A stretch of DNA of 64,000 nt, taken from assembly GCA_000092065.1 (NCBI GenBank), contig CP000581.1; one strand, given 5' to 3'. A program made the position numbers and the translations under genes. Below the pieces are notes generated by a model. The model did no database searches. It saw only the letters and a list, made by a program, of their open reading frames with translations, and was not told the origin of the DNA. Below, piece after piece: positions 1 to 60,976 of this stretch. The stretch is from Ostreococcus lucimarinus (lineage: Eukaryota). How positions within the stretch are numbered: the first letter of the stretch is position 1; each line of letters starts with the position of its first letter.

Positions 1-240
1 CTTATCCGCCCTCAGGAACCGCTCGCACGTCTCGCGCGTGCACCACGCGTCGACGTCGTCGTCGCGCGCCGCCGCGAGCGCATCCGCGACGCGTCGTCGC
101 ACGGCGTCGACCGCCTCGGGCGCGATCGCGGTTCGCATGCGCGCCGTGATGGACACCTTATCGCGAAGCGCGACGTCGCGACTCGTCGTCGACGTCGACG
201 CGTCTTCCGCCCGCCGCGTCGCGCGCGCGCCGTTCGCCAT
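1..240 (-). CDS. 5' coding exon of a SEC14/CRAL-TRIO-like protein, partial (continues past the left edge)
   Basis: Real ATG (cat at 238-240 on + strand). Minus-strand translation is MANGARATRRAEDASTSTTSRDVALRDKVSITARMRTAIAPEAVDAVRRRVADALAAARDDDVDAWCTRETCERFLRADK. The ...ERFLRA.K stretch resembles the CRAL-TRIO N-terminal motif (..LLRFLRARKFD..). Composition is not the R/A noise of spurious GC ORFs. Confidence 0.3.
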   Translation of the reverse strand, partial: MANGARATRRAEDASTSTTSRDVALRDKVSITARMRTAIAPEAVDAVRRRVADALAAARDDDVDAWCTRETCERFLRADK

Positions 241-469
241 CGCGCGCCGCGCTCCGACGCGCGCGACGCCGAGCGCGACGACGCCGGCGCGATCGCGACG
301 CGTTTCAGTGCGTTTCAGTGAGACGTCATTTATACACCCGGTCGCAACGCACATAGCGATATCGCGCGTGGTGTACGTACATGCGTACATGCGCGCGCGT
401 CGCACGCCCCGCACGCGCGCGTCGAACGTGGGGCAGCGCGGCGTCGCGGACGTCACAAATACGCACCCC
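241..469. promoter_or_regulatory. Divergent intergenic/promoter region between the SEC14-like gene (-) and GAPDH (+)
   Basis: Contains a tandem decamer gcgtttcagt x2 (301-320) and a locally AT-richer tract (gtacgtacatgcgtacatgcg, 378-400). No ORF with coding-like composition. Confidence 0.3.
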
Positions 470-2354: not shown

Positions 2355-2692
2355 ACCATTTTTTCGATCAACTTCATCGAGCGATGTTGGCGAGTGGACG
2401 AGGCGTGAGACGTAATTATTACGTCGTTGCGCCCTTGATTTCTCGCGCGATTTACCAGCGTATTAACACACACTTCTGTAATCAGAATCTAGAGACAGAT
2501 TTGAAAGAACCGCGTTCGCCTCGACGTAATTTTTCCGTCTCGACTCGAAAGCGCTGTACTTAACGTGGCGTCCTGCAAAGTTGCATTACAAATATATTGA
2601 ATCAATGACCTGTCGTCGATGAAAGAATATCACGAAATGAAGACGAGCGCGCGTCTCGATTGTCGTGTGCGCGTGCGAGAGGATGGGGATGG

Positions 2693-7715: not shown

Positions 7716-8387
7716 ATGAAGCGACCCGGGATCGCGCGCGCGGACGCGCGCGACGCGCCGTCGACGTCGTCGGACGCGATCGACGCGCGCGCGGCGAAAA
7801 AGGCGCGCGCGAACGCCGCGGGTGGACTGCTCGCGAGCATCCTCGGCGACGTGAAGCGATCGAACGCGCAGCGCGCGAAGACGGTCGTCGCGAGCGGCGG
7901 ACGCGCGATCACGAGGGATGACGTCGTGTCTCGGGAGACGAAAGCGATGGAGGCGCGAAGGAAGTTTGAGAGGGAGGTGCGGGAGAGGATCGAGCGAGAG
8001 GTGGCGGGGAGCGAGAGCGCGGAGGCGTTTTGCGAGTTTGAGACGATGGAGAAGCAGTGGAGGAACATCGTGCACGAAATCGCGGCGGAGATGAAGTTGT
8101 TTTCGGAGAGCGTGGAGGTAGGGGCGACGGGGGAGGAGAAGTTTGTGATTGTGCATAAGAAGGCGCCGGAGGTGGAGCGAGACGCGGAGTCGTTGCGAAA
8201 CGAAATCGCGGCGAGAGAGCGGGCGGGAAAACACGGTAAAAAGGGAGAGGGGTTGAGCGATAAAGCGCCGACGTACGCGGCAGATGCGGTTGAGTTGACA
8301 GTTGTGGGTACGGTGAAGCGAGACTTGCGGTCGGTGGAGGAAACGATTGCGGATATGCGCAAAGCTCGCGAGAAGACGGACGCTTGA
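7716..8387 (+). CDS. Hypothetical protein (K/E/R-rich, coiled-coil-like)
   Basis: First real ATG at 7716 (MKRPGIARAD..); the track's start at 7641 is GTG. Mixed, coding-like composition (..EKQWRNIVHEIAAEMKLFSESVEVGATGEEKFVIVHKKAPEVERD..). The antisense ORFs here are R/P/S-rich noise. No family recognised. Confidence 0.5.
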   Translation: MKRPGIARADARDAPSTSSDAIDARAAKKARANAAGGLLASILGDVKRSNAQRAKTVVASGGRAITRDDVVSRETKAMEARRKFEREVRERIEREVAGSESAEAFCEFETMEKQWRNIVHEIAAEMKLFSESVEVGATGEEKFVIVHKKAPEVERDAESLRNEIAARERAGKHGKKGEGLSDKAPTYAADAVELTVVGTVKRDLRSVEETIADMRKAREKTDA

Positions 8388-8433
8388 GTCGAGACCCTTC
8401 TAATAACAAATCGCTACGACGTATTAGGCTTAT

Positions 8434-15164: not shown

Positions 15165-15298
15165 CCGCGCGCGCCCCACACGGGCGAAACGCGCGCGCAG
15201 TACGCCCCCGCGCGCCGCGGTCGCGCGCGGCGCGTGAGGGCTTGCGCCGGCGCGCCGTCGCGGCGCCCGACGCCGCACACGACGACGCGACGCGCGCG

Positions 15299-17137
15299 AT
15301 GAGCGTTCAGGAGTACATCGAGAAGCACGATCTCACGAAGAAGATCGAGGAGGCGCTCAACGCCGCGGTCAAGGCCAAGGCGGATGAGCCGCTCGCGTTC
15401 GTGGTGCGCGCGACGCGACGCGATTGACGCGCGAACGCGATGGATGCGCGCGACCGCGGCGCGACGTCGAGGGCGAAGGGCGACGCGCGCGAAGGCGCGC
15501 GAAGGCGCGCGAGCGATGCGTTCGATGGCGTGGAAAACGTGCGGGCGAATGGGACGGGACGCGGGATCGGTGCGAGCGCGCGCGCGCGGGGGGGGGGTCG
15601 TTACGATCGCGGGAGGCGATCGGGTGTCTGGATAAAAGCGCGCGGCGCGCGCGGGCGATCGCGCTCGCGGAGGGGTGGGCGGGGCGAACGCCGTCGCCGT
15701 TCGGGATCGGGCGTGGAGGATTCGGGCGCGAAGATGCGTCGCGCGGCGACGCGGCGCGACGAAAAGACGATTGACTGACGATTCGACGAATGCTTACGAC
15801 GCGCGCAGAGCGAGTACATGAAAAAGCGCACGACGCCCGCCATCACGAAGGTCGTCGGTCGCCAAATTTTTGACTCTCGCGGTAACCCGACGGTTGAAGC
15901 CGATGTGTACACGCACAAGGGTATGTTCCGCGCCATGGTGCCGAGTGGTGCGTCCACGGGTATCTACGAAGCCGTGGAACTTCGCGACGGCGGCAAGGAA
16001 TACATGGGCAAGGGCGTCATGCAAGCCGTGAAGAACTTGAACGAAATCATCGCCCCGGCGCTCATCGGCAAGGACCCGCGCGACCAAAAGGCGATCGATG
16101 ATTTCATGTGCAAAGATCTCGACGGTACGGACAACAAGGGCAAGCTCGGCGCCAACGCCGTGCTCGCGGTTTCCATGGCCGTCGCCAAGGCTGGCGCCGC
16201 CGAGAAGGACGTGCCGCTCTACCAACACATCGCCGACCTCGCCGGTAACGGCAAGTTGGTGCTCCCGGTGCCGGCGTTCAACGTCATCAACGGTGGTTCC
16301 CACGCTGGTAACAAGCTCGCCATGCAAGAGTTCATGATCTTGCCGGTCGGGGCTTCCTCCTTCAAGGAGGCGATGCAAATGGGCTCCGAAGTCTACCACA
16401 ACTTGAAGTCGGTCATCAAGAAGAAGTACGGCCAAGATGCGTGCAACGTCGGTGACGAAGGTGGCTTCGCCCCGAACATTCAAGACAACAAGGAAGGTCT
16501 CGACCTCCTCGTTGAAGCGATCGAAAAGGCTGGCTACACCGGTAAGATGAAGATCGGTATGGACGTCGCCGCGTCTGAATTCTTGACCGAAGACAAGTGC
16601 TACGATCTCGACTTCAAGACCGAAGGCAACGACGGTTCCATGAAGAAGACTGGTGCCGAGATGATCGACTTGTACCAAGAGTTCATCAGCGAGTACCCGA
16701 TGATCTCCATCGAGGATCCGTTCGACCAAGACGACGCTGAAAACACCGCCGCGCTCACGGCGAAGAACAACTGCCAAATCGTCGGCGACGACTTGTTGGT
16801 GACCAACCCGAAGCGCGTGCAAGCCGCCATCGACGGCAAGTGGTGCAACGCCCTCTTGCTCAAGGTGAACCAAATCGGCACCATCTCCGAGTCCATCGAG
16901 GCCGTCGGCATGTCCAAGAAGGCTGGCTGGGGTGTCATGGCTTCCCACCGCTCCGGCGAAACCGAAGATTCCTTCATCGCCGATCTCGCCGTGGGCTTGT
17001 CCACCGGTCAAATCAAGACGGGCGCCCCGTGCCGCTCCGAGCGTTTGGCCAAGTACAACCAGCTCTTGCGCATCGAAGAAGAACTCGGTGACAAGGCTGT
17101 CTACGCCGGCGCGTCGTACAAGCACATTGCTTGGTAA
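15299..17137 (+). CDS. ENO: Enolase with a 35-aa N-terminal Dpy-30/RIIa-like extension (2 exons)
   Basis: Exon 2 (15809-17137) is a canonical enolase (..[41 protein letters not shown]..). Exon 1 (15299-15403, [35 protein letters not shown]) ends at a gtgcgc donor. Intron 15404-15808 has actgac 29 nt before acceptor gcgcgcag. The junction is in phase and gives ..LAFV|[15 protein letters not shown]... Confidence 0.85.
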
Positions 17138-47262: not shown

Positions 47263-49089
47263 TCATCCCTGGTCCATATCGCCGAGCGCGGCGCCAGACT
47301 CGCTCGCGTAAGCGTTCGATTTGTGCTTTGGCTGAAATGCGAATCCTTCAGGCGGCGGGCCGAGGAGCATTGTGGAGATCTTCACCCAATCGCTACTCGC
47401 CTCGCTCGCCATGAGTGTCTCCAAATCGTCCCGTCCAACAAACGCCGGTGGGCGCTGTGTCATCGCGGCAGCGCCGTAACTGTGATCCAACAACCCGATG
47501 GGGGTGTAGCGATACGTAAACGACATCCACTCGAGCAAATATTTGCGCGTCGACTCCACGCCTCGCGTGTCGCTTCCCCAGTGTTCGAGCCCGAAAGAGG
47601 CGAATGATTTCAAAATATCGAATCGCTCACGCGACGAAATGTCCCAGTCGCGACGCTCTTTGATTTCGGTGAACAGCCACGGCTTGATGAGCGCGCCGCG
47701 AGCGAGCATGCACGTGTCCACGGAGTGTTCCTCCAGATGGGTGTAGTAATCCTTTTGCATGTATACATCGCCGTTACCTATCAAAGGTACCGAGCTCGAC
47801 TCTTTTGTTAATTTGGTGTACTCCCAATCCGCCACGCTCCGGTATCGCTGCGCGCGCGTGCGTCCGTGAAGCGTCATCGCCGCCGCGCCCCATTCGGCGA
47901 CTTTCGGCGCAAACGTGTGCGCGACTCGACTTTTATCGGTGTACGCCATGCGCGTTTTGAACGTTAGCGAACACTTGCCAAGCGCCGCGCTGGCAGCACG
48001 AATGACTGTTTCCATCTTCTTGGGTTTCTCGAGCATCATCGACCCGTATCCTTTCTGGCACACGGAGTCGATCGGGCACCCCATGTTGATGTCTATAAAG
48101 TCGACGTCTATCGTGTCTTCGAGTAATTGGCAGCACCTGGTGACTGAGTCTGGGTAACCACCACATATCTGCACCCCAAAAATGTCTTCGCTCTTATGAC
48201 GACGAAGAAGCGCCCACTCACTCGGGAGTCCTTGCAGTAAACTCGTACACAACGCCATCTCACCGCACGTGATGTCGGCGCCAAGCGTCTTGCAAACGCG
48301 ACGAAACGGTAAATTTCCGACCGTCGTCAAAGGAGCTAGGTACAGCTTGTCTTTGAAGTCGATTGTTCTCTTCTCTTCGACGCGCGCTTTCGTAAACGCA
48401 CCCGTATCCGTACGGTTTTCTTCGTCGACTTTTGCGCGTTTCGCCGCGCTCTCCTCGCCCGCTTTCGTCTGCTCATCCTTTTTCGTCTCCATCGCCCTCA
48501 ACACTTCCTTCACGATCGTATCCGCCCTAGAAAAATCATACTTCTTCTTGCGTAACCGCACCATCACGTCCTTGTCCACGAAATTCATCTCCTTCTCCAC
48601 CGTCTTCGGCGGCTCGAGCGTCGTCGTCGACTCGGCAACCGTCGCGCCGTCCCGACCCTCCCCCGTCGCGTGCGTTCCGTAATATCGACAACGCACCCCG
48701 TACGGGCACCCGCCCTCTTTATTCACGAACGTGCACGTCCCCGGCAAATCGGGAGGTTTCGTCTTCAAAAACGCGTCGACGTCGTGCGAATATTTACACG
48801 CGTCGCCAAAGGCGCACTTTCCCTCGCGCGTCAACTGATTGCACAGCCCGCGCTCGCGCGGCTTATCCGCGCGCGACTTTTCGGCGAACTTGGCGCGTTT
48901 GTTGAACGCGCCGAACGTGCCGCCGCCCGAGATCGGCGCGGCGTCGCCGGCGTCGGCGTGGGTCGCCGCATCGAGCGGCGGCGGTGGTCTGGGCTCGACG
49001 AGAAACTCGCGCTTGACGACGACGGTACCGCTCGCGAAGAGCTCCGCGGACGTGGGCGGAGTCCACGGCGCGCCGACGTCGCTCGACAT
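47263..49089 (-). CDS. DUS3: tRNA-dihydrouridine synthase 3-like (two CCCH zinc fingers + DUS TIM-barrel)
   Basis: Real ATG at 49089. ..LCNQLTREGKCAFGDACKYSHD.. and ..GTCTFVNKEGGCPYGVRCRYYGTH.. (CCCH x2). DUS domain ..LAPLTTVGNLPFRRVCKTLGADITCGEMA..IDINMGCP... Confidence 0.85.
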   Translation of the reverse strand: MSSDVGAPWTPPTSAELFASGTVVVKREFLVEPRPPPPLDAATHADAGDAAPISGGGTFGAFNKRAKFAEKSRADKPRERGLCNQLTREGKCAFGDACKYSHDVDAFLKTKPPDLPGTCTFVNKEGGCPYGVRCRYYGTHATGEGRDGATVAESTTTLEPPKTVEKEMNFVDKDVMVRLRKKKYDFSRADTIVKEVLRAMETKKDEQTKAGEESAAKRAKVDEENRTDTGAFTKARVEEKRTIDFKDKLYLAPLTTVGNLPFRRVCKTLGADITCGEMALCTSLLQGLPSEWALLRRHKSEDIFGVQICGGYPDSVTRCCQLLEDTIDVDFIDINMGCPIDSVCQKGYGSMMLEKPKKMETVIRAASAALGKCSLTFKTRMAYTDKSRVAHTFAPKVAEWGAAAMTLHGRTRAQRYRSVADWEYTKLTKESSSVPLIGNGDVYMQKDYYTHLEEHSVDTCMLARGALIKPWLFTEIKERRDWDISSRERFDILKSFASFGLEHWGSDTRGVESTRKYLLEWMSFTYRYTPIGLLDHSYGAAAMTQRPPAFVGRDDLETLMASEASSDWVKISTMLLGPPPEGFAFQPKHKSNAYASESGAALGDMDQG

Positions 49090-49188: not shown

Positions 49189-50067
49189 TTAATTTTTCCT
49201 ACGGCGTAATTTTCGCGCGCGCGCGCCGCTCGCGGCGCACCGATCGTCGTCGTTTTCTTCGTCTCGTCCATCGACGACGTCGTCGTCGTCGTCGAGATGG
49301 ACGCGAACGTCGGCGCGCGTCGCGACGCTCGATTCCGGCGCCGCGCGCTTTTTCGTCTTCGACTTGGCGTTCGCCGCCGCCGCGCGAGAGAATCGCGGTT
49401 TCGGCAACGCTTCGACGGACTCGCGTTCGACGTGTATCGTCGGTGTGTTCGGGTGCTCGTCGCCCGTCGCCGACGACGGACCGCGCGCGTTCGACACTCG
49501 CCCGCTACCGACGGTGAGCTCTTCGTCGAGCGCGTATCGCGTGTACTTGGCGGGATTCGCCACGTGATCCGGCACGCGGTCCACCGCGCTCGGCGCGCCC
49601 ACCGCGCGCGCGCGCTCGACCATCGACGTCACCCCGTTCATCGATCGACGCTCGCGCGCGTCGACGCCGAGCGCCAGGGCGTCGTCCTCGTCGAAATCCG
49701 CCTCGCCGTCCAGCGCGCGACACCGCCCGACGCTCGCCGCCAACCGCGTCATCTTCCGCGCGTCGTCGTCCCCCTCCTCGTCCGATTCCAGGCAATCCAA
49801 ATCGTCCCCGCATCTCTCGCTCGCGCTCTCGCTCGCGCTCTCGCCGTCGCCGCCGTCGCCGTCGCCGCCCCGTCGCGTCACCGCGTTCGATCGCGGTCGC
49901 CACCCGCCGCCGTCGCCGTCCCCGAACACCGCGCCGACGCGCGCGTGAAACGTCCCGTACTCGATCGTCTCCGTCGCGCCGCGCGACGTCGACGCGCGCG
50001 CCGATTCGCGATTCAAGCGATCCTTCGCGTCGCCCGCGTCGTCGTCCGCGCGCGCGCGCGTCGCCAT
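49189..50067 (-). CDS. Hypothetical acidic protein
   Basis: 292 aa from real ATG 50067. D/E/G-rich, contains ..PDHVANPAKYTRYALDEELTV... Basic C-terminal tail (KSKTKKRAAPE..KLRRRKN, NLS-like). No family assigned. Confidence 0.4.
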   Translation of the reverse strand: MATRARADDDAGDAKDRLNRESARASTSRGATETIEYGTFHARVGAVFGDGDGGGWRPRSNAVTRRGGDGDGGDGESASESASERCGDDLDCLESDEEGDDDARKMTRLAASVGRCRALDGEADFDEDDALALGVDARERRSMNGVTSMVERARAVGAPSAVDRVPDHVANPAKYTRYALDEELTVGSGRVSNARGPSSATGDEHPNTPTIHVERESVEALPKPRFSRAAAANAKSKTKKRAAPESSVATRADVRVHLDDDDDVVDGRDEENDDDRCAASGARARKLRRRKN

Positions 50068-50269
50068 CGCGTCGTCGTCGTCGTCCCGTTGTGTCCGCGC
50101 GACGCGTCGTCGTCGTCGTCGCGCGCGTCGACCGCGCCGCGCGTCGTCACCGCGCGTCGCGCGAACGCGCGCGCCGACGCGCGTGCGATTCGCCGGAAAC
50201 GTTCGCGCCCGTCACGCGCGCGCGCGTCCGCCGTCGCGCGTCGCCGCGATCGCGCGCGCGCGCGTCGAT

Positions 50270-50520
50270 CGATCGATCGAACCCGATCGACGCGATCCGA
50301 ATCGATCGAATCGATCGAATCGATCGATTCGAGCATCGAATCGAATCGACCTCGAGGTCGACCTCGCCCGCTCGACTCGGGGTGCTTGAATCCGGTATTG
50401 GGAATTTCCCGATGCGTATTGAAATCGGCGATTTTACACTGTTTGCCCATACGAAAAGCCTAATACGTCGATACGCCAATACGGTATCAGCTCGTATCGA
50501 TACGAGCTGATACCGTCGCG
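50270..50520. promoter_or_regulatory. Bidirectional promoter region with palindromic microsatellite and a perfect 34-bp palindrome
   Basis: (gaatcgatc)n-type repeats and gacctcgaggtc at 50270-50360. A locally AT-richer tract. cggtatcagctcgtatcgatacgagctgataccg (50482-50515) is identical to its own reverse complement. Confidence 0.5.
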
Positions 50521-50582
50521 CGATCGCGAATCGCGATCGAACCGCGCGACGCACGACGACGCGCGCGATCCGACGCGCCGCG

Positions 50583-51161
50583 ATGACGCTCGCGACGACG
50601 ACGACGACGATGCCCCGCGCGCGCGCGATCGCGCCCCGACGCGCTCCGAAGACGACGCGCAAAATCGCGACGACGACGACGCGATCGACGGCGATCGACG
50701 CCGGCGATCGATTCGCGACGGCGACGCGGACGCTCGCGGCGGTGACGCTCGCGGCGACGCTCGCGATGCAACAACCGACGGACATCGCGCACGCGAAATC
50801 CGGCGCGGACGCGAACGTCGTCGAGAGATCGAGCGGGCTGTCGCCGATCAGCGATAAGGCGAAGTCGTACGGCGAAGAGATCGACGCGCGCGAGGCGGGC
50901 GATTACGAGAGCTCGAAGCGCGGGTCGTACAACGTGCGAGAAAAGTACGCGAAGAAGGCGCCGAAGGCGACGAAGAAGTTTGAACGACCGGTTCGGGAGG
51001 AAGCGGCGCCGAGGGCGAAGAAGGAATCCTCGGGCGGGGGGTTCGCGTTGCCGAGCTTTTCGTTGCCGAGCGTGTCGCTGCCGAGCCTGCCGAGCCTGCC
51101 GAGCTTCGGCGGCGACGCGGCGACGGAGGACGCGGCGCCGGCGGAGGCGGAGGCGTCGTGA
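50583..51161 (+). CDS. Hypothetical small protein with presequence-like N-terminus (possible plastid/thylakoid targeting) and SLPS repeats
   Basis: Real ATG at 50583. T/A/R-rich N-terminus followed by a hydrophobic stretch ..TRTLAAVTLAATLAMQQPTDIAHA (AxA-like site). Mature part is K/E-rich with ..GGGFALPSFSLPSVSLPSLPSLPSFGG... Confidence 0.45.
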   Translation: MTLATTTTTMPRARAIAPRRAPKTTRKIATTTTRSTAIDAGDRFATATRTLAAVTLAATLAMQQPTDIAHAKSGADANVVERSSGLSPISDKAKSYGEEIDAREAGDYESSKRGSYNVREKYAKKAPKATKKFERPVREEAAPRAKKESSGGGFALPSFSLPSVSLPSLPSLPSFGGDAATEDAAPAEAEAS

Positions 51162-51360
51162 GCGCGCGCGCGGCGAACGCGATGAAACGTCGCGAACGCG
51201 AACGCGATCGGCGCTCGACGCGACCGAACGCGTTTAATAATAAAGAAGCGCACACTTCGTCGACGCGTCGACGCTCGCCCCGCGCCGCGCGCTCGACGAA
51301 TGAGTGAAGACGACCGCGCGCGAGATTCCGCGACGCGCCGTCCGCGCGCGACGACGCGCG

Positions 51361-52146
51361 ATGGGCGGTCGCGGGCGCGGTGGACGCTCGAACGCGTGGA
51401 CGCGCGACGGCGGTCAGGGACGCGGCGGTCGCGGACACGCCGCCGTCGGCGTCCGAAGACGAGACCTGCTCCAGGAAGATTTGCTCGACGAGAAACCGAA
51501 CTGGGCGCTGTCGTGCTACGGCCCGAAGGGCGAGCAGCCGAACCTGCTCGGCGGTGACACGTCGTTCGAGGAGCTGCGGTGCGCGGCGTACGCGACGGTG
51601 CGCGCGGGAGGGGACGCGGGAGGCGCGCACGCGCGAGCGCGCGAGTACGCCGACGCCAAGGCGGGCGACGTCAAGGGAATACTGGCGTTCCCGGAACATC
51701 AGCTAAAGTTAGTTTTGGACCGCGTGGAGCGAGGGGAGATGGCGCCCGCGGGCGCGGATCGCGTGATGGACGGAACGGCGATCGTGGGGGGTGGGGGAGG
51801 GTTCTCGAGGACGCACGCGCCGGCGCTCGACGCGAGGGCGACGCCGTTCGCGCCGGCGGGTGGGATGGCGAGCGGGTTCACGGGGAATCAGCCTTCGTTG
51901 ACGCCGGTTGCGACGGGGTTCGTGGCGAGCGCGCAACCGACGAGTCCGTTCGGCGGCGGTCCCGGAGGCGGCGCGAGTCCGTTCGGCGGCGGTCCCGGAG
52001 GCGCGAGTCCGTTCGGCGGCGGTAACGCGCCGCGCGCGCCGTCGCTCACGCCGGATCCGAACGTCCCGAACTCAGAGGCGTGGTGCGCGCCTTCGTTCGA
52101 CATCGGAGGCGTGCCCGACGACCCGCCGCCCGCCGCGTACGTTTGA
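51361..52146 (+). CDS. NUP42/NUPL2-like FG-repeat nucleoporin
   Basis: First real ATG at 51361; the track's 51304 is GTG. ..EKPNWALSCYGPKGEQPNLLGGDTSFEELRCAAY.. parallels human NUPL2 ..[31 protein letters not shown]... C-terminal FG-type repeats SPFGGGPGGGASPFGGGPGGASPFGGG. Confidence 0.55.
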   Translation: MGGRGRGGRSNAWTRDGGQGRGGRGHAAVGVRRRDLLQEDLLDEKPNWALSCYGPKGEQPNLLGGDTSFEELRCAAYATVRAGGDAGGAHARAREYADAKAGDVKGILAFPEHQLKLVLDRVERGEMAPAGADRVMDGTAIVGGGGGFSRTHAPALDARATPFAPAGGMASGFTGNQPSLTPVATGFVASAQPTSPFGGGPGGGASPFGGGPGGASPFGGGNAPRAPSLTPDPNVPNSEAWCAPSFDIGGVPDDPPPAAYV

Positions 52147-52193
52147 TTGGGCGCGCGCTTTCGTGTTGTTACATAGTCGATGTAGTTGTAGAA

Positions 52194-55061
52194 TCACTCG
52201 CGAATCGCGAATTCACTCACCGATCTCGTCATCGGTGTCTCATTTTCTGCCTCTGCGGCCTCGAGCGCTTTTTTGTCATGCGCTTCGCGCTTGCGTTGCC
52301 CGCGCGCCTCTCGAGCGATGACTTTTCGTTGCGAACGAATCATATTGTCAAACTCCGACGTCAGGCGATAATCAAACTGGTACGCCCACTGTACCTCGGT
52401 GTCTTGAAACACGAGCGCGCGAACGTCGCCTACGGCGCGAGCTGACGTCCACGCCGTGAGAGTTTCTTCTTCGCCGCTCGCTTCCAAGTTTTTCAATTCA
52501 CCGACGAAATTGCCCACTCGACGAACGCCGACGACGACGCCGTCGCGAGTCAGCGTGCACTCGCCTGCAGTTATTATGAAGAACTCCGTCGCCGGGTCAC
52601 CCTGCCGCGTGATGAGCTCGCCGCTTTTGAATCGACGTTCAGGTGGTTGATGAGAGATGGAAATCAACCCGTCGAGTCGGGTGTGCAGGTTATGCAGCGT
52701 GTCCGAAGTGTGCGAAGCCTGGCCAGTGAACCAGGCGTGTTCTAGTGCCTGAGTCGCGGTGAGCCTGCGCTTGGGATTGGGATCGAGTAAACCTTCTATC
52801 AAATCCTTCGCGACATCACTCACAGATTCCCACTCCTCCGTTTCGAAATCGAGATCACATTCAATGATTTGCTCGTAAAGTTCATCCTCATCGTCGTCAT
52901 CAAACGGCCACGTATTCGTGAGCAGGACGTGCATGGCGATTCCGAGCGCCCAAACATCCACGCCTTGACCGTACACGCCAGCAAGTAACGCCTCTGGGGC
53001 GATGTACGATAGTGTACCACACACGTGCTGCGCTTTTTGACGAGCGTTCAACGCCTTCGCCAAACCAAAATCGACAATGTTCAACGACTTCAAATCGCCC
53101 TTTTCAGCCAGAACAAAGTTCTCGAGCTTCAAATCTCTATGAATGACACCCTTGCCGTGCATGAACGCCACTGCATCGAGCATGGCAGACATTATTATCT
53201 TGACCTCTTCTTCGCTAAATGCCCCGCGCGCGTTCACCAAATCGTCGAGCTCCTCGCCTTGCAAGCAATCCATGACGACGTGCACGACTTCATCGTTTTG
53301 TTCAGTGAAAAACTCTCGTATGGTGACGATATGCGGGTGCGCTGAGAGCTGCTGCATCATGACGAGTTCGCGCTTGACTTCATGAAGCGTCATGGATTGA
53401 AGCTCATCCTCATCGTCGCTGTCTTCATCGCTCGATGACTCACTTCCACCTTCGTCGTCGCTGTCGCCGCCTAAACCTTCGACGCGAAGCGTCTTCACGG
53501 CGACGATTTCACCCGTGTTACGATGCTTCGCCTTGCGCACAACGGCAAAACCACCGGCACCAAGAGTTTCTAAAACGTCGTACTTGTCTAGGAAAGGCAT
53601 ATAATCGTGCACTAACCCGACTGGGCGAACAAAACGCGATGTGTCAAGATCGTCCAAACCGCCCGGCGCAGAATTCGTTCGTTTCAGCCCGAGCTTGTTT
53701 CGCGTTCGACCTTCGGGCTTATGTTCGATGCGTTTGGCGAACAAGTGCGCTAAACGATAGCTAGGCATGGCTTTAACCAGTAATCCTTTGGTGTCGAATC
53801 CCTGCGGTCGTTGCGAATTCTTCAAATTGTTTGGCATCGCTTGAGCGCGCAAGCCACTCCAACCAGTGTTGATTTGCCTCTTCGTCGCGCTCCCCATTCG
53901 AGTCAAACCGGCAGAGTTCTTGCGCTCCAAAGTCATGGCGTGCATACGGTCACTTATGAACGGTGCCGGAGACGCGCTTCGCGAGCCTCCTGGAGATTCA
54001 CCTGGAGACTTCGTCGCCTTCGCGAGCGCGGCGAGATCCGGCGCGCTGTCCAACCGAAGCAACTGCGCGTGACCACGCGCAGCTTTCCCTCCGTAAGATG
54101 CAGGTTTCACCGATGCCCAAGCACTCAGACCAACAGGTAGTAAACCTGCGCGTTTCGCTCGTTCAATAAGCTCGCCAAAGATTTCGGGTGCCTTGGGAAC
54201 GTCTATGGACACGTCCTTGAGCGCCGTGGCGGTGCGCGCGAAACCTTTCGCCATTTGACTTCCGTTCACCACAGAGCTCCGCCCGATGTATTTCAATAAA
54301 TCCACCACCTTTTCGATGACGTTAGGGGTCAAGATCGACTGCTCGATCGCCAGCGTCAGCGCTTTCTTGACGAGCTCGTGATGGTAAAAAGGCATGTTCA
54401 ACCGACGTAATCGCCGCTCCGCCTCGGCGCCGTCTCTCGACATCAAATACTCATCGATGATATCCCGCATCTCTATCTTGGCGTTATCCGCGCTGTATCC
54501 CTCGGGTCCGCCCCACGCCTTACGCACGCGCGACTCCCCACTCGCATCGGCCAGCGTCATTTTCGCCGACTTGGCCACGTCTCTTCCTTCGCCGTAACCG
54601 TCCCTCGAGCACGCCGTCTCCAGGTACGTCACCGACACCACATCATCCGCCACCGCGCGCGCCAAAAACGTCACGCACTCAGCCACGGCATCTGGGAAAT
54701 CGATTTTCAAATCCGCAACCTCCGCGAGCACGCGATCGAACCCACGTTCGAAATCCTCCGCGTCCAGCGTCCCGCTCGCCCTCGTCGCCGCGAGCGCCTG
54801 CGCGCACATCTCCCGCTCTCTCGCCCCTCTATCCAGCGCGCACGCGATCATGCGCTTCACGCAGTGCGCCTCCAGCCCACACTTCGCATCGCTCGCCCCC
54901 GCGCCCCCGCCCTGCGCCGCGATCGTCTCCGCGAGCGCGCGGTCGAACTCCTCCACGCTGCAGTGCGAAAAGAACTCTCGACAGCGCTTCTCCACGTCGC
55001 GCTTGAACGCCACCTCCTGTCCGACGTAATACTTGGACCGCGACGACCACGGCGCGGACAT
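52194..55061 (-). CDS. Multidomain signalling protein: two PDCD4-like MA3 domains + CaMK-like Ser/Thr kinase + C-terminal cyclic-nucleotide-binding-like domain
   Basis: Real ATG at 55061 (MSAPWSSRSKYYVGQ..). MA3 #1 ..CREFFSHCSVEEFDRALAE..REMCAQALAA; MA3 #2 ..IDEYLMSRDGAEAERRLRRLNMPFYHHELVKKALTLAIEQS (compare PDCD4 ..LKELEVPHFHHELVYEAI..). Kinase motifs LGAGGFAVV, VAVK, HRDLKLEN, DFGLA, APE. C-terminal ..FKSGELITRQGDPATEFFIITAGECTLT..NFVGELKNL.. looks cNMP-binding-like. One uninterrupted frame. Confidence 0.75.
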   Translation of the reverse strand: MSAPWSSRSKYYVGQEVAFKRDVEKRCREFFSHCSVEEFDRALAETIAAQGGGAGASDAKCGLEAHCVKRMIACALDRGAREREMCAQALAATRASGTLDAEDFERGFDRVLAEVADLKIDFPDAVAECVTFLARAVADDVVSVTYLETACSRDGYGEGRDVAKSAKMTLADASGESRVRKAWGGPEGYSADNAKIEMRDIIDEYLMSRDGAEAERRLRRLNMPFYHHELVKKALTLAIEQSILTPNVIEKVVDLLKYIGRSSVVNGSQMAKGFARTATALKDVSIDVPKAPEIFGELIERAKRAGLLPVGLSAWASVKPASYGGKAARGHAQLLRLDSAPDLAALAKATKSPGESPGGSRSASPAPFISDRMHAMTLERKNSAGLTRMGSATKRQINTGWSGLRAQAMPNNLKNSQRPQGFDTKGLLVKAMPSYRLAHLFAKRIEHKPEGRTRNKLGLKRTNSAPGGLDDLDTSRFVRPVGLVHDYMPFLDKYDVLETLGAGGFAVVRKAKHRNTGEIVAVKTLRVEGLGGDSDDEGGSESSSDEDSDDEDELQSMTLHEVKRELVMMQQLSAHPHIVTIREFFTEQNDEVVHVVMDCLQGEELDDLVNARGAFSEEEVKIIMSAMLDAVAFMHGKGVIHRDLKLENFVLAEKGDLKSLNIVDFGLAKALNARQKAQHVCGTLSYIAPEALLAGVYGQGVDVWALGIAMHVLLTNTWPFDDDDEDELYEQIIECDLDFETEEWESVSDVAKDLIEGLLDPNPKRRLTATQALEHAWFTGQASHTSDTLHNLHTRLDGLISISHQPPERRFKSGELITRQGDPATEFFIITAGECTLTRDGVVVGVRRVGNFVGELKNLEASGEEETLTAWTSARAVGDVRALVFQDTEVQWAYQFDYRLTSEFDNMIRSQRKVIAREARGQRKREAHDKKALEAAEAENETPMTRSVSEFAIRE

Positions 55062-55178
55062 CTCCGCGACGCGCTCGCCGCGACGCGACGCGCGCGCGCG
55101 ACGCCAGCGCGTCGAACGGCGCGATGTGATGCGCACCGAACGCGTCGCGCGCGACTTCGCGACGCGTCGCGCGTCGCC

Positions 55179-56525
55179 ATGGGCATCTTCGACGGCATCT
55201 TCGGCGGCGAGCCGCGCGCGTCGAGCGGCGCGTCCGCGCTGTTCGACGCGCGGTCGGCGTTTCACGCCGCGAGCGCGGCGGACGCGCCGGTGGTGCGCGC
55301 GCCGTTGTCGGCGTCGGCGAAGAAACGGGCGCGACGCGACGCGAGCGCGGACGCGACGGACGCGCGCGCGAAACGCGCGCGAGAAAAACCGAACGCGCGC
55401 GCGGCGAGCGCGGCGTCGTCGTCGTCGGACGCGGCGTCGAGCGAGGATGAGGGCGAAAGCGAGGACGATGCGCCGGCGGCGGCGGCGGTTTCGGACGAGA
55501 AACCGAACGGCGACAGCGACAGCGATGAGGGAGCGACGAAAGCGAAACCGTCGGGGTCGGGGTATCGCGATCGATCGGCGGAGGCGACGGCGGAGGAGCT
55601 GGCGCGGACGGTGTTCGTCGGGAACGTCCCGGCGAAGACGAAGCTGAAAAAGTTGAAGGCGAAATTCGGCGAACACGGCAAGGTGGTGAGCGTACGGTTG
55701 AGAAACGTGCCCGTGGAAGCGGATGGAAACGAACCTAGGAAAATTAAAGTGCTGAAGGGAAAATTAAACGCGGAGCGGGCGAACGCGACGGCGTTCGTGG
55801 TGTACGACGACGCGGCGTCGGCGCGCGCGGCGACGGCGGCGTTGAATATGAAGGAGTTCGAGGGACGGCACATTCGCGTTGATTTAGCGAGTAAACCATC
55901 GATCATACGAAGTGAGGTGGTGTATGATCACACGCGAAGTGTCTTCTTGGGCCATTTACCGTTTAATGTCGACGATGAGGACGTGATTCGGTTGTTCAAC
56001 AAGAATAAAGAGTATCCCGATTTGCGCAAGAGCGTCGAGGCCGTGCGCGTGGTGCGAGACAGAAAGACGACCATGGGTAAGGGCATCGGGTTCGTGTTGT
56101 TCAAAACGCCAGCGCAAGCGCGTACGGCGCTTTTGCTTGACGGGAGTAAGCTCGGCGATAGAGAGATTCGCGTGAGCAAAGCCGCTCGATCCAAGGCGCC
56201 GAAACCCGGCACGCCGAGCAAGGCGCGCGCCGAGCCGAAGGTCGCCACCGGTGCCGAACGACGGAATCCGAAGCTTCGTGACGAAGGTGGCGATGCGTCG
56301 ACGTCGCGTGGCACAAACGCGTGGGAAGGGTCGAGATCTCGTCCCGGTGGAAAATCGTCCAAGAGCGCGCACCGCGGCGGCGAGGCGCAGCGCGGCGCCC
56401 CAGGCGCGAGGCAAACTTCGAGTAAAGCCGGCATCGCGAAGGCGGCCAAACGATCGGGAAAGCGCCCCGCCGTGGCGGCGCGCAAGGCCAAAGCCAAGGC
56501 GTCCGCGGCGGCGGGACGTAACTAA
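55179..56525 (+). CDS. Nucleolar two-RRM RNA-binding protein (RBM34/Nop12-like)
   Basis: Real ATG at 55179 (MGIFDGIFGG..). RRM1 ..TVFVGNVPAKTKLKKLKAKFGEHGKVVSVRL..AFVVYDD... RRM2 ..SVFLGHLPFNVDDEDVIRLF..GKGIGFVLFKT... Acidic Ser-rich N-terminus and K/R-rich C-terminus. Confidence 0.7.
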   Translation: MGIFDGIFGGEPRASSGASALFDARSAFHAASAADAPVVRAPLSASAKKRARRDASADATDARAKRAREKPNARAASAASSSSDAASSEDEGESEDDAPAAAAVSDEKPNGDSDSDEGATKAKPSGSGYRDRSAEATAEELARTVFVGNVPAKTKLKKLKAKFGEHGKVVSVRLRNVPVEADGNEPRKIKVLKGKLNAERANATAFVVYDDAASARAATAALNMKEFEGRHIRVDLASKPSIIRSEVVYDHTRSVFLGHLPFNVDDEDVIRLFNKNKEYPDLRKSVEAVRVVRDRKTTMGKGIGFVLFKTPAQARTALLLDGSKLGDREIRVSKAARSKAPKPGTPSKARAEPKVATGAERRNPKLRDEGGDASTSRGTNAWEGSRSRPGGKSSKSAHRGGEAQRGAPGARQTSSKAGIAKAAKRSGKRPAVAARKAKAKASAAAGRN

Positions 56526-56585
56526 CGTAGATTTTGTGGTCTTGATGCTGCGCAATACAACGTCTCAGCGATTCCTCGCGCCGTC

Positions 56586-57072
56586 TACTCCTCCTTCTTA
56601 TCGCCCTCGATCGCCTTCGTCTCGCCTTCTTCGGTCATTTCCTCTGTAAGTTCATCCTTAAACTCCTATTCGCGTCGCAAACCAACCGTCACGATTCGTC
56701 AGTCGTCGCGTTCGCTCGCCCTCGTCCCGCGTCGCCTTCGTTTGAGATACTCTTTGCCCTCGCGCGTCCGTCTCGCGCGCTCGCTCGATCAACGCCTTCG
56801 CCGCGCACCTTGGCCGCCTCTTGAAAACTCTTCACCGTCTTCCCGAGCGACTTTCCGAGCTCGGGAAGCTTGCTCGGGCCGAACAGCACCGCGGCGACGC
56901 CACCGATGACGACGATTTCAGGAAGCCCGAGCCCGAACAATCCGTTGGAAATCACGCGCGCGCGTCGTCGTTCGAGCGCCGCGCGACGCGGCGCCAGCGC
57001 GGACGATCGCTGTGCGTACGTTTGACGCGCCGCGACGCGCGTCGCGCGCGCCGGGGCGTGCACGGTAAACAT
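56586..57072 (-). CDS. THA4: Plastid twin-arginine translocase subunit Tha4 (TatA), 2 exons
   Basis: Exon 1 ..GLFGLGLPEIVVIGGVAAVLFGPSKLPELGKSLGKTVKSFQEAAK ends at AAG|gtgcgc (intron 56667-56808, actgac 27 nt before acceptor aatag). Exon 2 (56586-56666) encodes EFKDELTEEMTEEGETKAIEGDKKEE*, giving the canonical ..FQEAAKEF.. and acidic tail. Start set at ATG 57072 (MFTVHAPARATRVAARQ.. transit peptide). An upstream in-frame ATG at 57195 is an alternative. Confidence 0.8.
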
Positions 57073-57257
57073 CACGACGGATTCTGCGGTCGATCGCTCG
57101 CGCGCGGTCGCCGGCGTCGCCGCATTCGCGCGCGCGCGCGACGTCACGCGCGACCGTCGACGCTCGTGACGCGCTGAGATGACGTAACGCTGCATCGCGC
57201 GCGCACACGCACGAGATAGACGCGCGAGACGCGCGCGCGGCGACGCTGTTCGTCGTC

Positions 57258-59922
57258 ATGTCGACGCGATGCGCCGACGCGCAGTCGCTCAACCGCGCCG
57301 TCGTCGCCGCTCGCGCGCCGCGCGAGCTCGTCGCGCTCATCGACGGCAACGACGCGCTGCTGAACGCGATCAACTGCGCCGCGATCGCGGGCAAGGCGGC
57401 GAAGATGCACGCGCTGGCGGAGAAACGCGACGATGGCGCCGCCGCCGGGGAGGCGCGCGCGGTGGTGAAAACCATCGCGAACGTCGCGCGCGCGTCGCTG
57501 GAACGCGCGCCGCGCGAGTGGTGGCCGCGGCAGTGCGCGGCGATGCTTTGGGCGTGTGGACGCGCGAACGCGCGGGATGAGGCGATGGAACGCGCGATCG
57601 AGGCGATGGTGGAGGCGCGCGCGCGAATGTTCAAGCCGCAGGAACTGTCGAACGCGTTTTGGGGATTGGCCAAGGCGAAGAGCGATACCGTGGGATTGTG
57701 GTTGATATTGGGAGACTTGATACGAGCGTCGTTGATGGTGGATAAAGGGACGGATCATCAGAACGGATGGACGCCGCAAGGGGTGTCGAACGCGGCGTGG
57801 AGCTTGGGGGCGATGACGGAGACGACGCGACGAGGCGTGTTCGAGGAGAGCGCGCTGGGACGCGAGCTCGCACGTGGGATCGCGGTGGCGGTGGAAGAAC
57901 GAGTTGAGATGTTCAATCCGCAAGAATGTGCGAATACGATGTCTGGGTTCGCGAAGTGTGGGTCGAGCGTGCGAGAAGACGCCGAAGTAGGTGTCAAGGC
58001 GTTGTGCTCGCGATTGAAGCGAGAACGCGCGTGGTTCTCCGGCGGCGAGTTTCAGTGCCAGCACGTCTCCAACGTTATTTGGGCGTGCGCGAAGTTGAAC
58101 ATGAGCGATGATGCGGAATTGATCGCTATATTCGTCGACGCGGCAAACGAGTACGCGAACAAGTTCAACGCGCACGAACTCTCGATGGTTCTGTGGGCGC
58201 TCGCGAATCTCGCCGTCGACGATCACAAAGTCATGCACGCGCTCGCAAAGTCGATGGCGAGGAAAGCGGACGAATCATCGGCGCAGCAAATCGCGACGTC
58301 AGCGCACGCGATGGCAAAGCTCGGGATTTATAACTCACAGATAATGAAGGCTTACAAGGATCACGCCGCGGCGCGCAGAGATGAATTTCAGCCGCGCGAC
58401 ATCGCGTTCTTGGCGTGGTCGTTCGCAAAACTCGACATCAAGGCACCAGAACTGTTTGAAATGTTTAGCGCTGTGGTGTGTGAGATGTTGTTCGACGTCG
58501 AGTTTCAAACCTTTTCGCCACACCACTTGACGATGGTGTTGTGGTCGTTCGCCATGCTCAACGAAAATACGCAAGAGGTTTTACCATACATCGTGCGGGC
58601 GATGAAGTCCATGATCGACGAGTTCAATCCGCGAGATTTGACGAACACGGCGTGGGCGCTCGCCGCGCTCGGATGCGACGACAATGAATTAATCAAAGCA
58701 CTGGGCGCGTGCGCACAAATGAAGCTCAACGACTTTAATTCGCAGGAGCTTTTAAAGTTCCTCGGTTCGTACGAGCGACTCGGCGTTGAAGACGCTTCAC
58801 TCGCCAAAGCCGTGTCGGCGCGGCGTACGTTGTCGTACGAGTTTCCCTCAATGAACGCTACCATCGAGCTCACCGCGGCGACACCGCAGAGTTACAAAGG
58901 TACCGATCGTGTCCGCGTCGACGATAGCTGTGGGGGATGGGGAAGAGGAAACACGGGTGTGGCACTGTGGGAAGGAAGTTTTGTTTTAGCGGAGTGGTTA
59001 TCTCGACAGAAATCGCCGCTCGCGACGGAGGGCGTCGCTAAGGCGCTCGGTGGAGCTTGGGACGACGATTGGAAGGGTAAAGTATGCGTTGAACTCGGTG
59101 CTGGTTTAGGTTTACCGTCCGTAGTCGCTTCCAAACTTGGCGCGCACGTTGTCGCTACCGACGGTACGTTTCGCGCGTCTTCTTTCGACTTGTTCGTCCT
59201 TCGCCACTGTTAATCCCTTCATTGGACTTTCTGTGTCCTTGGAGTTTCAAATGTGGCACACATCAACTCGGGAGTTTCGCTGACAGCACTCGCACGTTTC
59301 GGCGGGCCATGAGTGTCATCTGATAGTAGCTCTCGCACATTCATCGCGCGTATCGCACATCGAACTGACGAGTTCCTTTTCATTCCACGCAGGCGACGAC
59401 GACGTCTTGACGCTACTGCGAGAGAACGTCGAAGCAAACGCGGCGAAGGACGCACGCGTAGAGAAACTTGTTTGGGGCAACGAAAAGCCGCTAAAAACTC
59501 TCGGGTTAAAAACGCAGCCGGATCTTGTCTTGGCGAGCGACGTCGTGTACGGTAACGACCCGGCCAAGTGGACGAATCTCGTGCGCACGATGCGCGACTT
59601 GGCTGGGCCGAACACGCTCATTTTGATCGCAAACGTCCAGCGGTACCCTGTACACCATCCGCTCGCGGAAACTAAGTTTTACACCGAGTCAACGGTAAAA
59701 GATTTTGAGCGAACGGAGCTACCAGTGACGGCATTACACTCCGATTTCCAACGCACTGGCGCCGGTAATTGCGTCATTCACGTGTTTCGTCCGCGCGGCG
59801 ACAAAAAGAGAAAGTCGGCGAGTAAAGATGCAAAAAAGGAGAAGAAGGCAAAAAAGGAGAAGAAGGAGAAGAAGGAGAAGAAGGAGAAGAAGGAGAAGAA
59901 AGAGAAGAAAGAGAAGTCCTAG
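57258..59922 (+). CDS. OPR (octotricopeptide, about 38-aa) repeat protein fused to a Methyltransf_16 (METTL21/Nnt1-like) SAM-methyltransferase domain, with a Lys/Glu-rich tail (2 exons)
   Basis: Real ATG at 57258. At least 8 repeats of F.PQELSN..WALAKL-type (FKPQELSNAFWGLAKA, FNAHELSMVLWALANLA, FQPRDIAFLAWSFAKLD, FSPHHLTMVLWSFAMLN, FNPRDLTNTAWALAALG ...). Then ..GGWGRGNTGVALWEGSFVLAEWL..VCVELGAGLGLPSVVASKLGAHVVATDG|gtacgt, intron 59164-59392 (actgac 21 nt before cag), then DDDVLTLLRENVEAN..DLVLASDVVY... Tail is KKEKKAKKEKKEKKEKK... Confidence 0.7.
59836..59915 (+). repeat. Coding trinucleotide-type microsatellite (AAGGAGAAG)n
   Basis: About 9 units of aaggagaag / aaagagaag encoding the (KEK)n C-terminal tail of the OPR-methyltransferase protein. 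Confidence 0.8.
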
Positions 59923-60004: not shown

Positions 60005-60976
60005 CTACGGCGGCAGGTCAGAGTTTGTGAGTGGTTTCGCGAGCAAAATGTGCCCAACCTCGACGAGACCGAGCTTCGCGAAGGGATTGTTCTTGCTCGA
60101 ACGTTGCGCGATTTGCGCCGAGGTGAGCTTCGCCTTGACCTCAGGCGGCTCCTCGTATCCGCACTTTTCAAAGAGAATCTGCGCAGCCTCGTTGTCAACC
60201 TTAGTGTGCGTGTACAATATGGTTTCGCCCATATTCGCCATCGCGCGCTCGGCCGCGAGCACGAGTTGTCGGCCGATCCCACGCCCGCGCTGCGTCGGGC
60301 TCACGCACACGTCTGACAAGTACGCCTTGTCCCTCGGCGCCCTCGGCTGCAGCTTGTCGGCCCCGTATCTATTGCCGTTCGGCAACGACACCTCCGAAAT
60401 CCCCACCAACACGTTCCCAACCTTGGCAGATATCAAAATACGATCCTCCGCCGTCTTCACGCCGTCCAAAAGTCCCATGCGCACGCGCTTCGCTTGTTCG
60501 CCTCGCAATCGGTTCTTCGCCAAGATATCCTGCGGCCTCACCTTGAAAAACAAGTCCATCACCAAATTCGTCGCATCGTCCACATCCTCCTCCTCCAGCA
60601 CCCCGATCACGACGTTCCCTTTCGTCTTCATCTCCACCGACACCCGCTTCACCGCCTGATCCTTCTTCGCCGTCGCCTGACTCTTCTGCCGCTTCGTCGG
60701 CGCGAACTTCACCGTCCCCGCCGCCAGGTCCACCATCAACATCGGCCGCGGTCCATCGCTCACCGCCTCTCCCGTCGTCGTCGTCACGCCGCGAATCGAC
60801 GCGCTCTTCCTTCCGTCCACCGCGGTCCCCGTCTCCGCGTCATCGCTCGCGTTCGCGCGCGTCGCGCGTCGCGTCGTCGACTTATCCGTCGGCATCCGCG
60901 TCCTCGCCTTCGCGCGACCGACGCGCGGGGCGCGCGCCGCGCCCACCACCGCGGTCGCGCGCGTCGTCGTCGACAT
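60005..60976 (-). CDS. GNAT-family N-acetyltransferase with presequence-like N-terminus
   Basis: Real ATG at 60976 (MSTTTRATAVVGAARAPRVGRAKARTRM.., T/A/R-rich). GNAT core ..AYLSDVCVSPTQRGRGIGRQLVLAAERAMANMGETILYTHTKVDNEAAQILFEKCGYE.. (Q/RxxGxG/A acetyl-CoA motif). Confidence 0.7.
   Translation of the reverse strand: MSTTTRATAVVGAARAPRVGRAKARTRMPTDKSTTRRATRANASDDAETGTAVDGRKSASIRGVTTTTGEAVSDGPRPMLMVDLAAGTVKFAPTKRQKSQATAKKDQAVKRVSVEMKTKGNVVIGVLEEEDVDDATNLVMDLFFKVRPQDILAKNRLRGEQAKRVRMGLLDGVKTAEDRILISAKVGNVLVGISEVSLPNGNRYGADKLQPRAPRDKAYLSDVCVSPTQRGRGIGRQLVLAAERAMANMGETILYTHTKVDNEAAQILFEKCGYEEPPEVKAKLTSAQIAQRSSKNNPFAKLGLVEVGHILLAKPLTNSDLPP

Follow-up and report, generated by a model that had tools for sequence, protein, structure and literature searches.

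The OPR, HPR, FASTK and RESC6 proteins share tandem repeats of about 37-48 residues with an F-x-P-Q-x-L-x-N-x-x-W-A-x-A-K-L core that fold into an alpha-solenoid; the OPR, HPR and FASTK solenoids are usually treated as organelle-specific RNA regulators, and their common partner is the RAP nuclease-like domain. The METTL21 group (METTL21D/VCP-KMT, METTL21A, METTL21C and EEF1AKMT3) comprises stand-alone methyltransferase domains of 200-290 residues. Modules of both kinds are joined in one gene in the DNA considered here, a stretch of 64,000 nucleotides from chromosome 1 of Ostreococcus lucimarinus CCE9901 (contig CP000581.1; hereafter the window, to which all positions refer unless another locus is named). 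The coding sequence occupies 57258..59922 of the plus strand, exactly the extent given in an original prediction for this DNA, with its ATG at 57258 and its stop at 59920-59922, and specifies a product of 811 residues: a helical-repeat solenoid, a Methyltransf_16 domain that forms the C-terminal third, and a lysine-rich tail. The parts, a helical-repeat module and a METTL21-type enzyme, are known; the family in which they are combined is widespread yet uncharacterised, and it is practically certain that the gene model and the architecture are real.

A repeat solenoid and a methyltransferase in one reading frame

A single open reading frame (ORF), 57258..59213, runs unbroken for 651 residues from the repeats through the domain junction and motif I to the post-I segment VVATDG; since all of these lie within the exon 1 ORF, the fusion is independent of splicing. 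A stop in the repeat ORF before about 58900 was looked for, and the frame is open over this entire region. The claim that the repeats pass directly and in frame into the methyltransferase, with no RAP domain, is borne out also by a Pfam scan of the 811-residue protein, in which no FAST_2 or RAP match (PF08368, PF08373) was obtained at E<=1. That two genes, or a decaying pseudogene, have been read as one could be argued from the protein databases, as the exact spliced 811-residue product is absent from a collection of 15 billion proteins and no NCBI-named Mamiellales protein was among the matches of the homology searches. However, the uninterrupted ORF across the junction refutes a split, the junction segment FNSQELLKFLG...RTLSYEFP is highly conserved, and the architecture recurs in at least 30 sequence clusters and in transcriptomes; such an annotation artefact is scarcely credible.

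The repeat core reads F-x-P-Q-E-L-S-N-x-x-W-A-L-A-K-L. When a profile was made from eight clear cores, these scored 24-31 bits and a ninth core was detected at residues 88-104 (shuffled sequences give a mean of 0.02 matches); three more degenerate units, at about residues 33-49, 341-355 and 493-507, were assigned by eye and from the helix pattern of the AlphaFold2 (AF2) model. At least eight repeats of about 38 residues with an OPR signature had been predicted; the number, with 12 repeats in all, and the broader class stand, but the spacing of 37-48 residues is looser than a strict 38, and the "PPPEW" half of the Chlamydomonas OPR motif, which has been named as OPR-specific (PMC8190603), is missing. 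No PPxxW follows the WALAKL helix, and the positions read DDxEL or KAPELF instead.

Assignment to the class comes from several directions. FAST_1 (PF06743) matches in two stretches with 44.1 bits against a cut-off of 27.4 (E=1.9e-11), and DUF6832 is matched as well; P0001, a metagenome ORF call that is 100% identical to the exon 1 product, carries precomputed Pfam matches to PF26188 RESC6 (unmarked) and PF26172 RESC8; and phmmer against the PDB aligns the solenoid with trypanosome RESC6 (chain 8fn4_6, E=3.3e-15). The AF2 model, computed from a 24-sequence family alignment (predicted local distance difference test score, pLDDT, 89; predicted template modelling score, pTM, 0.78), places 28 helices in residues 2-520 with pLDDT mostly above 90. 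Foldseek relates this part to RESC6 and RESC8, to mitoribosomal helical-repeat proteins of Toxoplasma, Chlamydomonas and Polytomella, and to ASA2. The repeats belong to the OPR/HPR/FASTK/RESC6 class. From the described members of that class the fusion protein differs in having neither a RAP/FAST_2 domain nor a presequence, in that the methyltransferase replaces the usual C-terminal nuclease-like domain, and in localisation signals that look nuclear, not organellar.

Solenoid-type relatives joined to other enzymes were also seen (P0028, P0029, P0030, P0032 and P0187), with a pseudouridine synthase in the dinoflagellates Polarella and Alexandrium, a flavin adenine dinucleotide (FAD) oxidoreductase, and a protein kinase (Symbiodinium). 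RAP-domain proteins and the dinoflagellate pseudouridine synthase fusions have in common with the Ostreococcus protein an N-terminal solenoid followed by a C-terminal catalytic domain; they differ in that the partner here is predicted to modify protein and not RNA. The existence of relatives with RAP, pseudouridine synthase, kinase and oxidoreductase partners fits the solenoid as a reusable targeting module.

The C-terminal domain had been described as a METTL21/Nnt1-like Methyltransf_16 enzyme, and this description passed the Pfam check: PF10294 matches residues 565-720 with 70.3 bits (cut-off 21; E=2.2e-19), and the fold is that of class-I SAM (S-adenosylmethionine) methyltransferases. Sequence matches in the PDB are to METTL21D, A, C and B (E about 4e-11), and Foldseek relates the fold to METTL21D, A and C (target TM about 0.8); the structures 7oat_C, 4lg1, 4lec, 8hl6 and 4mtl are matched with target TM scores of 0.70-0.83. 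In the AF2 model the solenoid is followed by a beta hairpin (residues 523-540), a low-confidence loop (544-569) and a Rossmann-type domain of seven beta strands. Motif I, VELGAGLGLPS, lies at 59088-59120 and is followed by the post-I VVATD, motif II LVWG and the post-II DVVY (D685-V-V-Y688, 59539-59550), in which the family DxxY motif is intact. In the alignment, conservation is complete or reaches at least 90% at V611-G618, T634, D635 and G636; motif I is invariant across the fusion family, and the D of DxxY is replaced by G in one of its subclades (Prymnesium, Gymnochlora and others). Judged by these motifs the Ostreococcus domain is catalytically intact.

Fold, motif I, post-I D, LxWG and DxxY are thus all held in common with the METTL21 group, and the chemistry, transfer of a methyl group from SAM to a protein lysine, is presumably common as well; in contrast to the stand-alone METTL21 enzymes, the methyltransferase is here one third of a much larger protein. 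When the methyltransferase alone was used as query, the family's own fragments were matched at E<=1e-20, and the next matches, generic plant "lysine methyltransferase" entries along with EEF1AKMT3-like and METTL21A proteins, came only at 1e-12 to 1e-8; in view of this gap the fusion methyltransferases are a distinct Methyltransf_16 clade. The loop KGTDRVRVDDSCGGWGRGNTG between the hairpin and the first methyltransferase helix (residues 544-569, window 58887-58964) is strongly conserved in Mamiellales and Sphaeroforma and shorter in other lineages; in spite of its low AF2 confidence it is a candidate substrate-binding lid.

Targets of Methyltransf_16 enzymes include VCP, Hsp70 and eEF1A. To our knowledge all characterised members of the family modify proteins, many of which are translation components, and none acts on RNA; the motifs and the affinities of the domain make it very probable that the substrate here is a protein also. 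The original prediction had allowed for methylation of the bound RNA, such that the solenoid would present an RNA and the enzyme would methylate one of its nucleotides. The Rossmann-fold methyltransferase superfamily does contain many RNA enzymes, and weak Pfam side-matches to PrmA and TRM5/TYW2-type models occur in some homologs. However, the best sequence and fold matches are without exception protein-lysine methyltransferases, and because the characterised relatives act on proteins and the DxxY motif is present, methylation of RNA is highly improbable.

The fusion family and its gene structure

The joining of an OPR-type solenoid to a methyltransferase had been offered as a new architecture, a view that must be given up. 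When 1.84 billion cluster representatives were searched with a profile, no fewer than 30 clusters (50% identity) were covered across the two domains by a single continuous match, and the lineages represented are Mamiellales, haptophytes, a chlorarachniophyte, a dictyochophyte and Sphaeroforma, which is non-photosynthetic. Named members are Sphaeroforma arctica XP_014155531, Prymnesium parvum KAL1512202 and Diacronema lutheri KFE25_003117, and UniProt has entries from these three genera; Gymnochlora sp. (an MMETSP transcript) and Pseudopedinella (a partial transcript) add to these. Homologs occur as full-length single transcripts in MMETSP in Gymnochlora and another taxon, and Methyltransf_16 lies at the C-terminus of all ten full-length members scanned. 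Close relatives from marine metagenomes are prokaryote-style ORF calls that end in the intron (61-73% identity); when the loci of four relatives were spliced by homology, the intron was found after TDG in the same codon phase, and exon 2 supplied the remaining methyltransferase. The layout is unchanged in more distant full-length proteins. The junction segment FNSQELLKFLG...RTLxYxFPAL is among the best-conserved parts of the alignment, which argues for a rigid two-domain unit.

The fusion is a conserved, uncharacterised family that extends across several eukaryotic supergroups. The UniProt labels "calmodulin-lysine N-methyltransferase" (haptophyte members) and "RESC6 domain-containing" are automatic names, and our literature searches found no description of a solenoid-Methyltransf_16 fusion.

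The ortholog of Sphaeroforma arctica, which has no plastid, is 44% identical to the Ostreococcus protein and closer to it than are the haptophyte members. Contamination was considered as its source and rejected, as the gene (L128 10001-17292, KQ242013.1) consists of five exons, with four introns, over 7.3 kb in a locus of 42% G+C. One of these introns (15258-15624 of that locus) interrupts the same codon in the same phase as in Ostreococcus, ACT GAC G|GT...CAG|GA GAC, whereas two haptophyte orthologs have introns at other positions. Two explanations are suggested for the common intron: a transfer that involved the ichthyosporean lineage and a Mamiellales-like alga, or an intron that is old and shared.

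The short intron foreseen in this region is present in Ostreococcus (Table 1), and its position and phase are identical in L003, L005, L006 and L007 (Mamiellales-type) and in Sphaeroforma L128. Acceptor 59392 alone restores the conserved continuation GDDDVL, and exon 2 ORFs of relatives likewise carry PF10294. Two other in-frame acceptors, 59326 and 59329, were rejected; they fall inside a small nucleolar RNA (snoRNA) and would insert 21-22 residues that have no counterpart in homologs. Among the transcripts, P0019 (EukProt "Pelagococcus subviridis") continues its reading into the intron and is therefore taken to be unspliced; it closely resembles a sequence from GCA_014466335.1 (P0018/L005), an assembly that also contains Ostreococcus-type contigs (L037), and its taxon label may be unreliable.

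Table 1. Coordinates of the parts of the fusion gene within the window
Feature	Position	Strand	Content	Evidence
Exon 1	57258..59163	+	Residues 1-635 and first base of Gly636; whole solenoid and N-terminal half of the methyltransferase	Continuous ORF, splice model
Alpha-solenoid	57258..58817	+	Residues 1-520; about 12 degenerate repeats	Repeat profile, Pfam, phmmer, AF2, Foldseek
Methyltransf_16, N-terminal part	58821..59163	+	Residues 522-635; beta hairpin, loop 544-569, motif I, post-I VVATD	PF10294, METTL21D/A alignments, AF2
Intron	59164..59392	+	Phase 1, 229 nt, GTACGT...CAG; single intron of the gene	
H/ACA snoRNA	59201..59342	+	About 142 nt, within the intron; two hairpins, H box ACATCA, ACA at 59337-59339	Rfam, conservation, covariation
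Exon 2, methyltransferase C-terminal part	59393..59790	+	Residues 636-768; motif II LVWG, post-II DVVY, remaining strands	Pfam, PDB alignments, Foldseek
Basic tail and stop	59791..59922	+	Residues 769-811; KKRK at 59803-59814, then KKE repeats	
(AAGGAGAAG)9 microsatellite	59836..59916	+	Encodes KKE repeats	Tandem Repeats Finder: period 9, 9.0 copies, 90% matches

Where the protein may act

The protein appears to enter its fold at once. In most orthologs residue 1 opens a conserved first helix, M-x-x-x-Q/A-h-x-h-N-x-x-L, the same start is used in Mamiellales, haptophyte and unassigned orthologs, and in the AF2 model residues 2-17 form part of the solenoid; little net charge is found in the first 30 residues, and 12 of the 13 N-termini examined have acidic residues within positions 2-18. 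Position 57258 is the earliest start codon downstream of an in-frame stop. Because the protein opens with the conserved helix that starts the solenoid, and no coding room is left upstream, where a divergent TatA-like gene begins within 63-180 bp, it most likely lacks a presequence. The label "chloroplast RNA-regulator type" that had been attached to the gene is accordingly dropped: the N-terminus is not extended, the tail has a nuclear or nucleolar look, and an ortholog integrated in the genome of non-photosynthetic Sphaeroforma is incompatible with a chloroplast-specific role.

The tail (residues 769-811) is predicted by AF2 to be a lone helix with pLDDT 48-84; the fraction of charged residues is 0.81, the net charge per residue is +0.35, and there are 10 KK doublets. 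Nearly every family member that was inspected has, directly after the last strand, a basic tail with a KKRK, KRKR or KRPR cluster, and in Mamiellales the tail consists of lysine doublets spaced by glutamate. The KKE/D domain has been defined as a terminal disordered region that is rich in charged residues, is net positive and contains a block of KK doublets with E or D between them; in yeast such a domain on GFP suffices for nucleolar targeting and for association with early, nascent pre-rRNA (PMC11528048). The KKE/D domains of Cbf5/dyskerin, Nop56, Nop58, Pxr1 and Rpa34 resemble the tail in being terminal, disordered and lysine-rich, with about 9-10 doublets spaced by E (or A), high charge and a positive net value. 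The Ostreococcus tail is shorter (43 residues) and its host protein is not a known ribosome-biogenesis factor; it is also more uniform, because it is encoded by a microsatellite. That such a tract should be prone to length polymorphism had been anticipated and is what is found: O. lucimarinus-like metagenome contigs have tails of 43, 46 and 49 residues that differ by whole KKE units (46 being given in this comparison for the window allele, found in 6 loci), and tails of a sister clade have 43-58 residues; L044, L084, L023, L016, L042 and L057 are among the loci that show this variation. These in-frame differences are as expected for microsatellite slippage.

Taken together, these features and the analogies drawn from them point to a ribonucleoprotein (RNP)-directed protein-lysine methyltransferase of the nucleus or nucleolus, a reading to which we give a probability of roughly 0.5. 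The solenoid would act as a targeting module that docks on RNA or an RNP (possibly on a protein partner), much like the structurally related proteins of ribosomes and editing complexes, and the methyltransferase would then move a methyl group from SAM to a lysine of a protein within the bound particle. The basic tail would bring the enzyme into the nucleus and, in the manner of the KKE/D domains in Cbf5, Nop56 and Nop58, raise its concentration close to nascent pre-rRNA, in which case the substrate might be a ribosomal protein or a ribosome-assembly factor. The parts of this proposal differ in strength. A site of action outside the organelles is somewhat favoured by the sequence features and the analogies; a pre-ribosomal target in the nucleolus is a tentative suggestion by analogy, with the odds leaning against it. 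More doubtful still is the fullest form of the proposal, i.e. that this is a first non-organellar branch of the OPR/HPR/FASTK proteins, nucleolar in location, in which an RNA-reading array positions a METTL21-type enzyme on pre-ribosomal particles and the KKE tail concentrates it at nascent rRNA.

A number of considerations weigh against the nuclear or nucleolar assignment, which draws on sequence features and analogy. The likeness of the tail to KKE/D domains is one of composition, and outside Mamiellales and a small number of further lineages the KKE block is missing, conservation being limited there to a short basic cluster; the presence of a snoRNA in the intron is a weak pointer to a ribosome-related function. 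In addition, all relatives of the solenoid with a known structure come from organelles, i.e. the trypanosome mitochondrial RESC proteins, the mitoribosomal proteins and the ATP-synthase subunit ASA2, all being components of mitochondrial RNPs or similar, and the literature associates OPR, HPR and RAP proteins with organelles (PMC8190603, PMC13126933). The solenoid might then bind a chloroplast or mitochondrial transcript or rRNA and the methyltransferase modify a protein of that organellar RNP. A few homologs, P0315 and P0324 among them, have N-terminal extensions that are possible presequences, although these are uncurated ORF calls. Such an organellar role is nevertheless unlikely, in that neither Mamiellales nor haptophytes have room for a presequence, a lysine-rich C-terminal tail resembling a nuclear localisation signal is found family-wide, some members (P0332 and P0038) carry N-terminal RGG boxes, and the Sphaeroforma ortholog is at odds with the chloroplast version.

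The charge of the solenoid bears on a different alternative. In Ostreococcus the solenoid is mildly acidic (isoelectric point 5.4-5.9), which is unusual for an RNA binder and also counts against docking on RNA, whereas it is basic in most other lineages; and ASA2, an OPR-like structural subunit, shows that the solenoid fold is able to bind protein instead of RNA. The enzyme might accordingly be cytosolic or nuclear with the solenoid as a protein-protein substrate adaptor that does not engage RNA, the tail being a mere import signal or non-specific. Other Methyltransf_16 enzymes do use accessory regions or partners, e.g. METTL21D with ASPL on p97, and the targets of this enzyme family are proteins. 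Because the Ostreococcus solenoid is acidic, the adaptor retains some standing, but it is judged rather improbable: the solenoid is basic in most lineages, its closest sequence relatives, RESC6/8 and the mitoribosomal proteins, are located on RNA, proteins that associate with RNA typically have RGG boxes and KKE tails, and relatives join the same type of solenoid to an RNA-modifying pseudouridine synthase. An RNP-directed protein methyltransferase in the nucleus or nucleolus therefore remains the reading that we prefer.

The intronic H/ACA snoRNA and the neighbouring genes

The intron of the fusion gene hosts an H/ACA snoRNA, as shown by covariation, and this RNA, overlooked in the original prediction, is a predicted pseudouridylation guide. 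The introns were aligned because their translation looked conserved between genera. Long, nearly identical intron blocks are present in Ostreococcus, in a Micromonas-like locus and in a low-GC locus, although the proteins are only 37-46% identical (the labels "Micromonas-like" and "Bathycoccus-like" of metagenome loci are inferred from composition and synteny). A two-block pattern was found in 126 metagenome loci, in 102 of them beside exons of the fusion gene and in 92 with both exons recognisable. A permissive Rfam scan gave snoR83 at 59214-59342 (31 bits, E=0.0047) and SNORA62 at 59199-59342 (29 bits, E=0.0089), and a sister Ostreococcus locus has an Rfam H/ACA match too. With snoR83 and SNORA62 the element has in common the double hairpin, the pseudouridylation pockets, the H box, an ACA 3 nt from the 3' end and an intronic location; it is not called a member of either family because the scores are below the gathering thresholds (31 vs 40 bits and 29 vs 80 bits).

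When 18 diverse copies were fitted to the canonical two-hairpin structure, 94.7% of cells were paired and 16 of 22 stem pairs showed compensatory change; none of 500 shuffles scored as high, and partners slid by 1-3 columns gave 31-50%. No variation is seen in the pocket strands, the hinge conforms to ANANNA, and 3 nt separate the ACA (ATA in some taxa) from the 3' end. In the 3' hairpin, the RNAalifold structure joins both invariant pocket strands to one another; this was rejected in favour of an open pocket, as these pairs never vary and the flanking stems hold all of the covariation. The 3' pocket strands GTTTCGC and GATAGTAG would pair with CUACUAUC-UA-GCGAAAC, with the predicted site CUACUAUC-U-AGCGAAAC. 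The sequence CUACUAUC-UA-GCGAAAC is a putative conserved segment of large subunit (LSU) rRNA domain IV; there is no rDNA among the 130 loci fetched, and a literature search did not find the string. The introns of L005 and of Sphaeroforma lack the snoRNA.

Public annotation of the region can be followed through neighbouring genes. The window ORFs 47263-49089, 5861-7381 and 60005-60976 are identical to ABO94086, ABO94075 and ABO94090, respectively; the three accessions ABO94087-94089 span the gap from 47263-49089 to 60005-60976, in which five or six genes were located (neighbours of the fusion gene at 49297-57195), and public Mamiellales proteomes may lack the fusion gene or contain a faulty model of it. 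Upstream and divergent on the minus strand, 56689-57195 holds a TatA/Tha4-like gene (GLFGLGLPEIVVIGGVAAVLFGPSKLPELGKSLGKTVKSF) with an Arg/Ala-rich N-terminus, which is also the neighbour in L007. Its start lies about 63-180 bp from that of the fusion gene, and because the two start codons are so close both genes are probably driven by one bidirectional promoter. The same gene order is found in window 52194-56525 and in 1-3355 of the low-GC locus L006: a gene with MA3, protein kinase and cyclic nucleotide monophosphate (cNMP)-binding parts, an RRM gene, a small ORF and then the fusion gene. The window ORFs 52194-55676 (minus strand) and 54864-56525 (plus strand) overlap as mechanical ORFs in a GC-rich stretch. 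In L005, long perfect palindromic repeats (GTACGAAGGTAC units) lie downstream of the gene at 7788-9093 and give rise to spurious microRNA-family matches in the permissive Rfam scan.

The fusion family welds a solenoid of a class usually assigned to organelles to a protein-lysine methyltransferase, with signals of nuclear or nucleolar type in place of a transit peptide. Few snoRNAs are annotated in the lineage of Ostreococcus, and the H/ACA snoRNA in the intron of the gene is a well-supported addition to them. If the predicted localisation is true, the biology of this repeat class would reach beyond the organelles, and the family would be a concrete candidate for an enzyme that methylates lysines of RNP or ribosomal proteins in a targeted way in ecologically dominant picoplankton, among which O. 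tauri is genetically tractable. If, further, the nucleolar reading is true, protein methylation would here be placed by RNA recognition.

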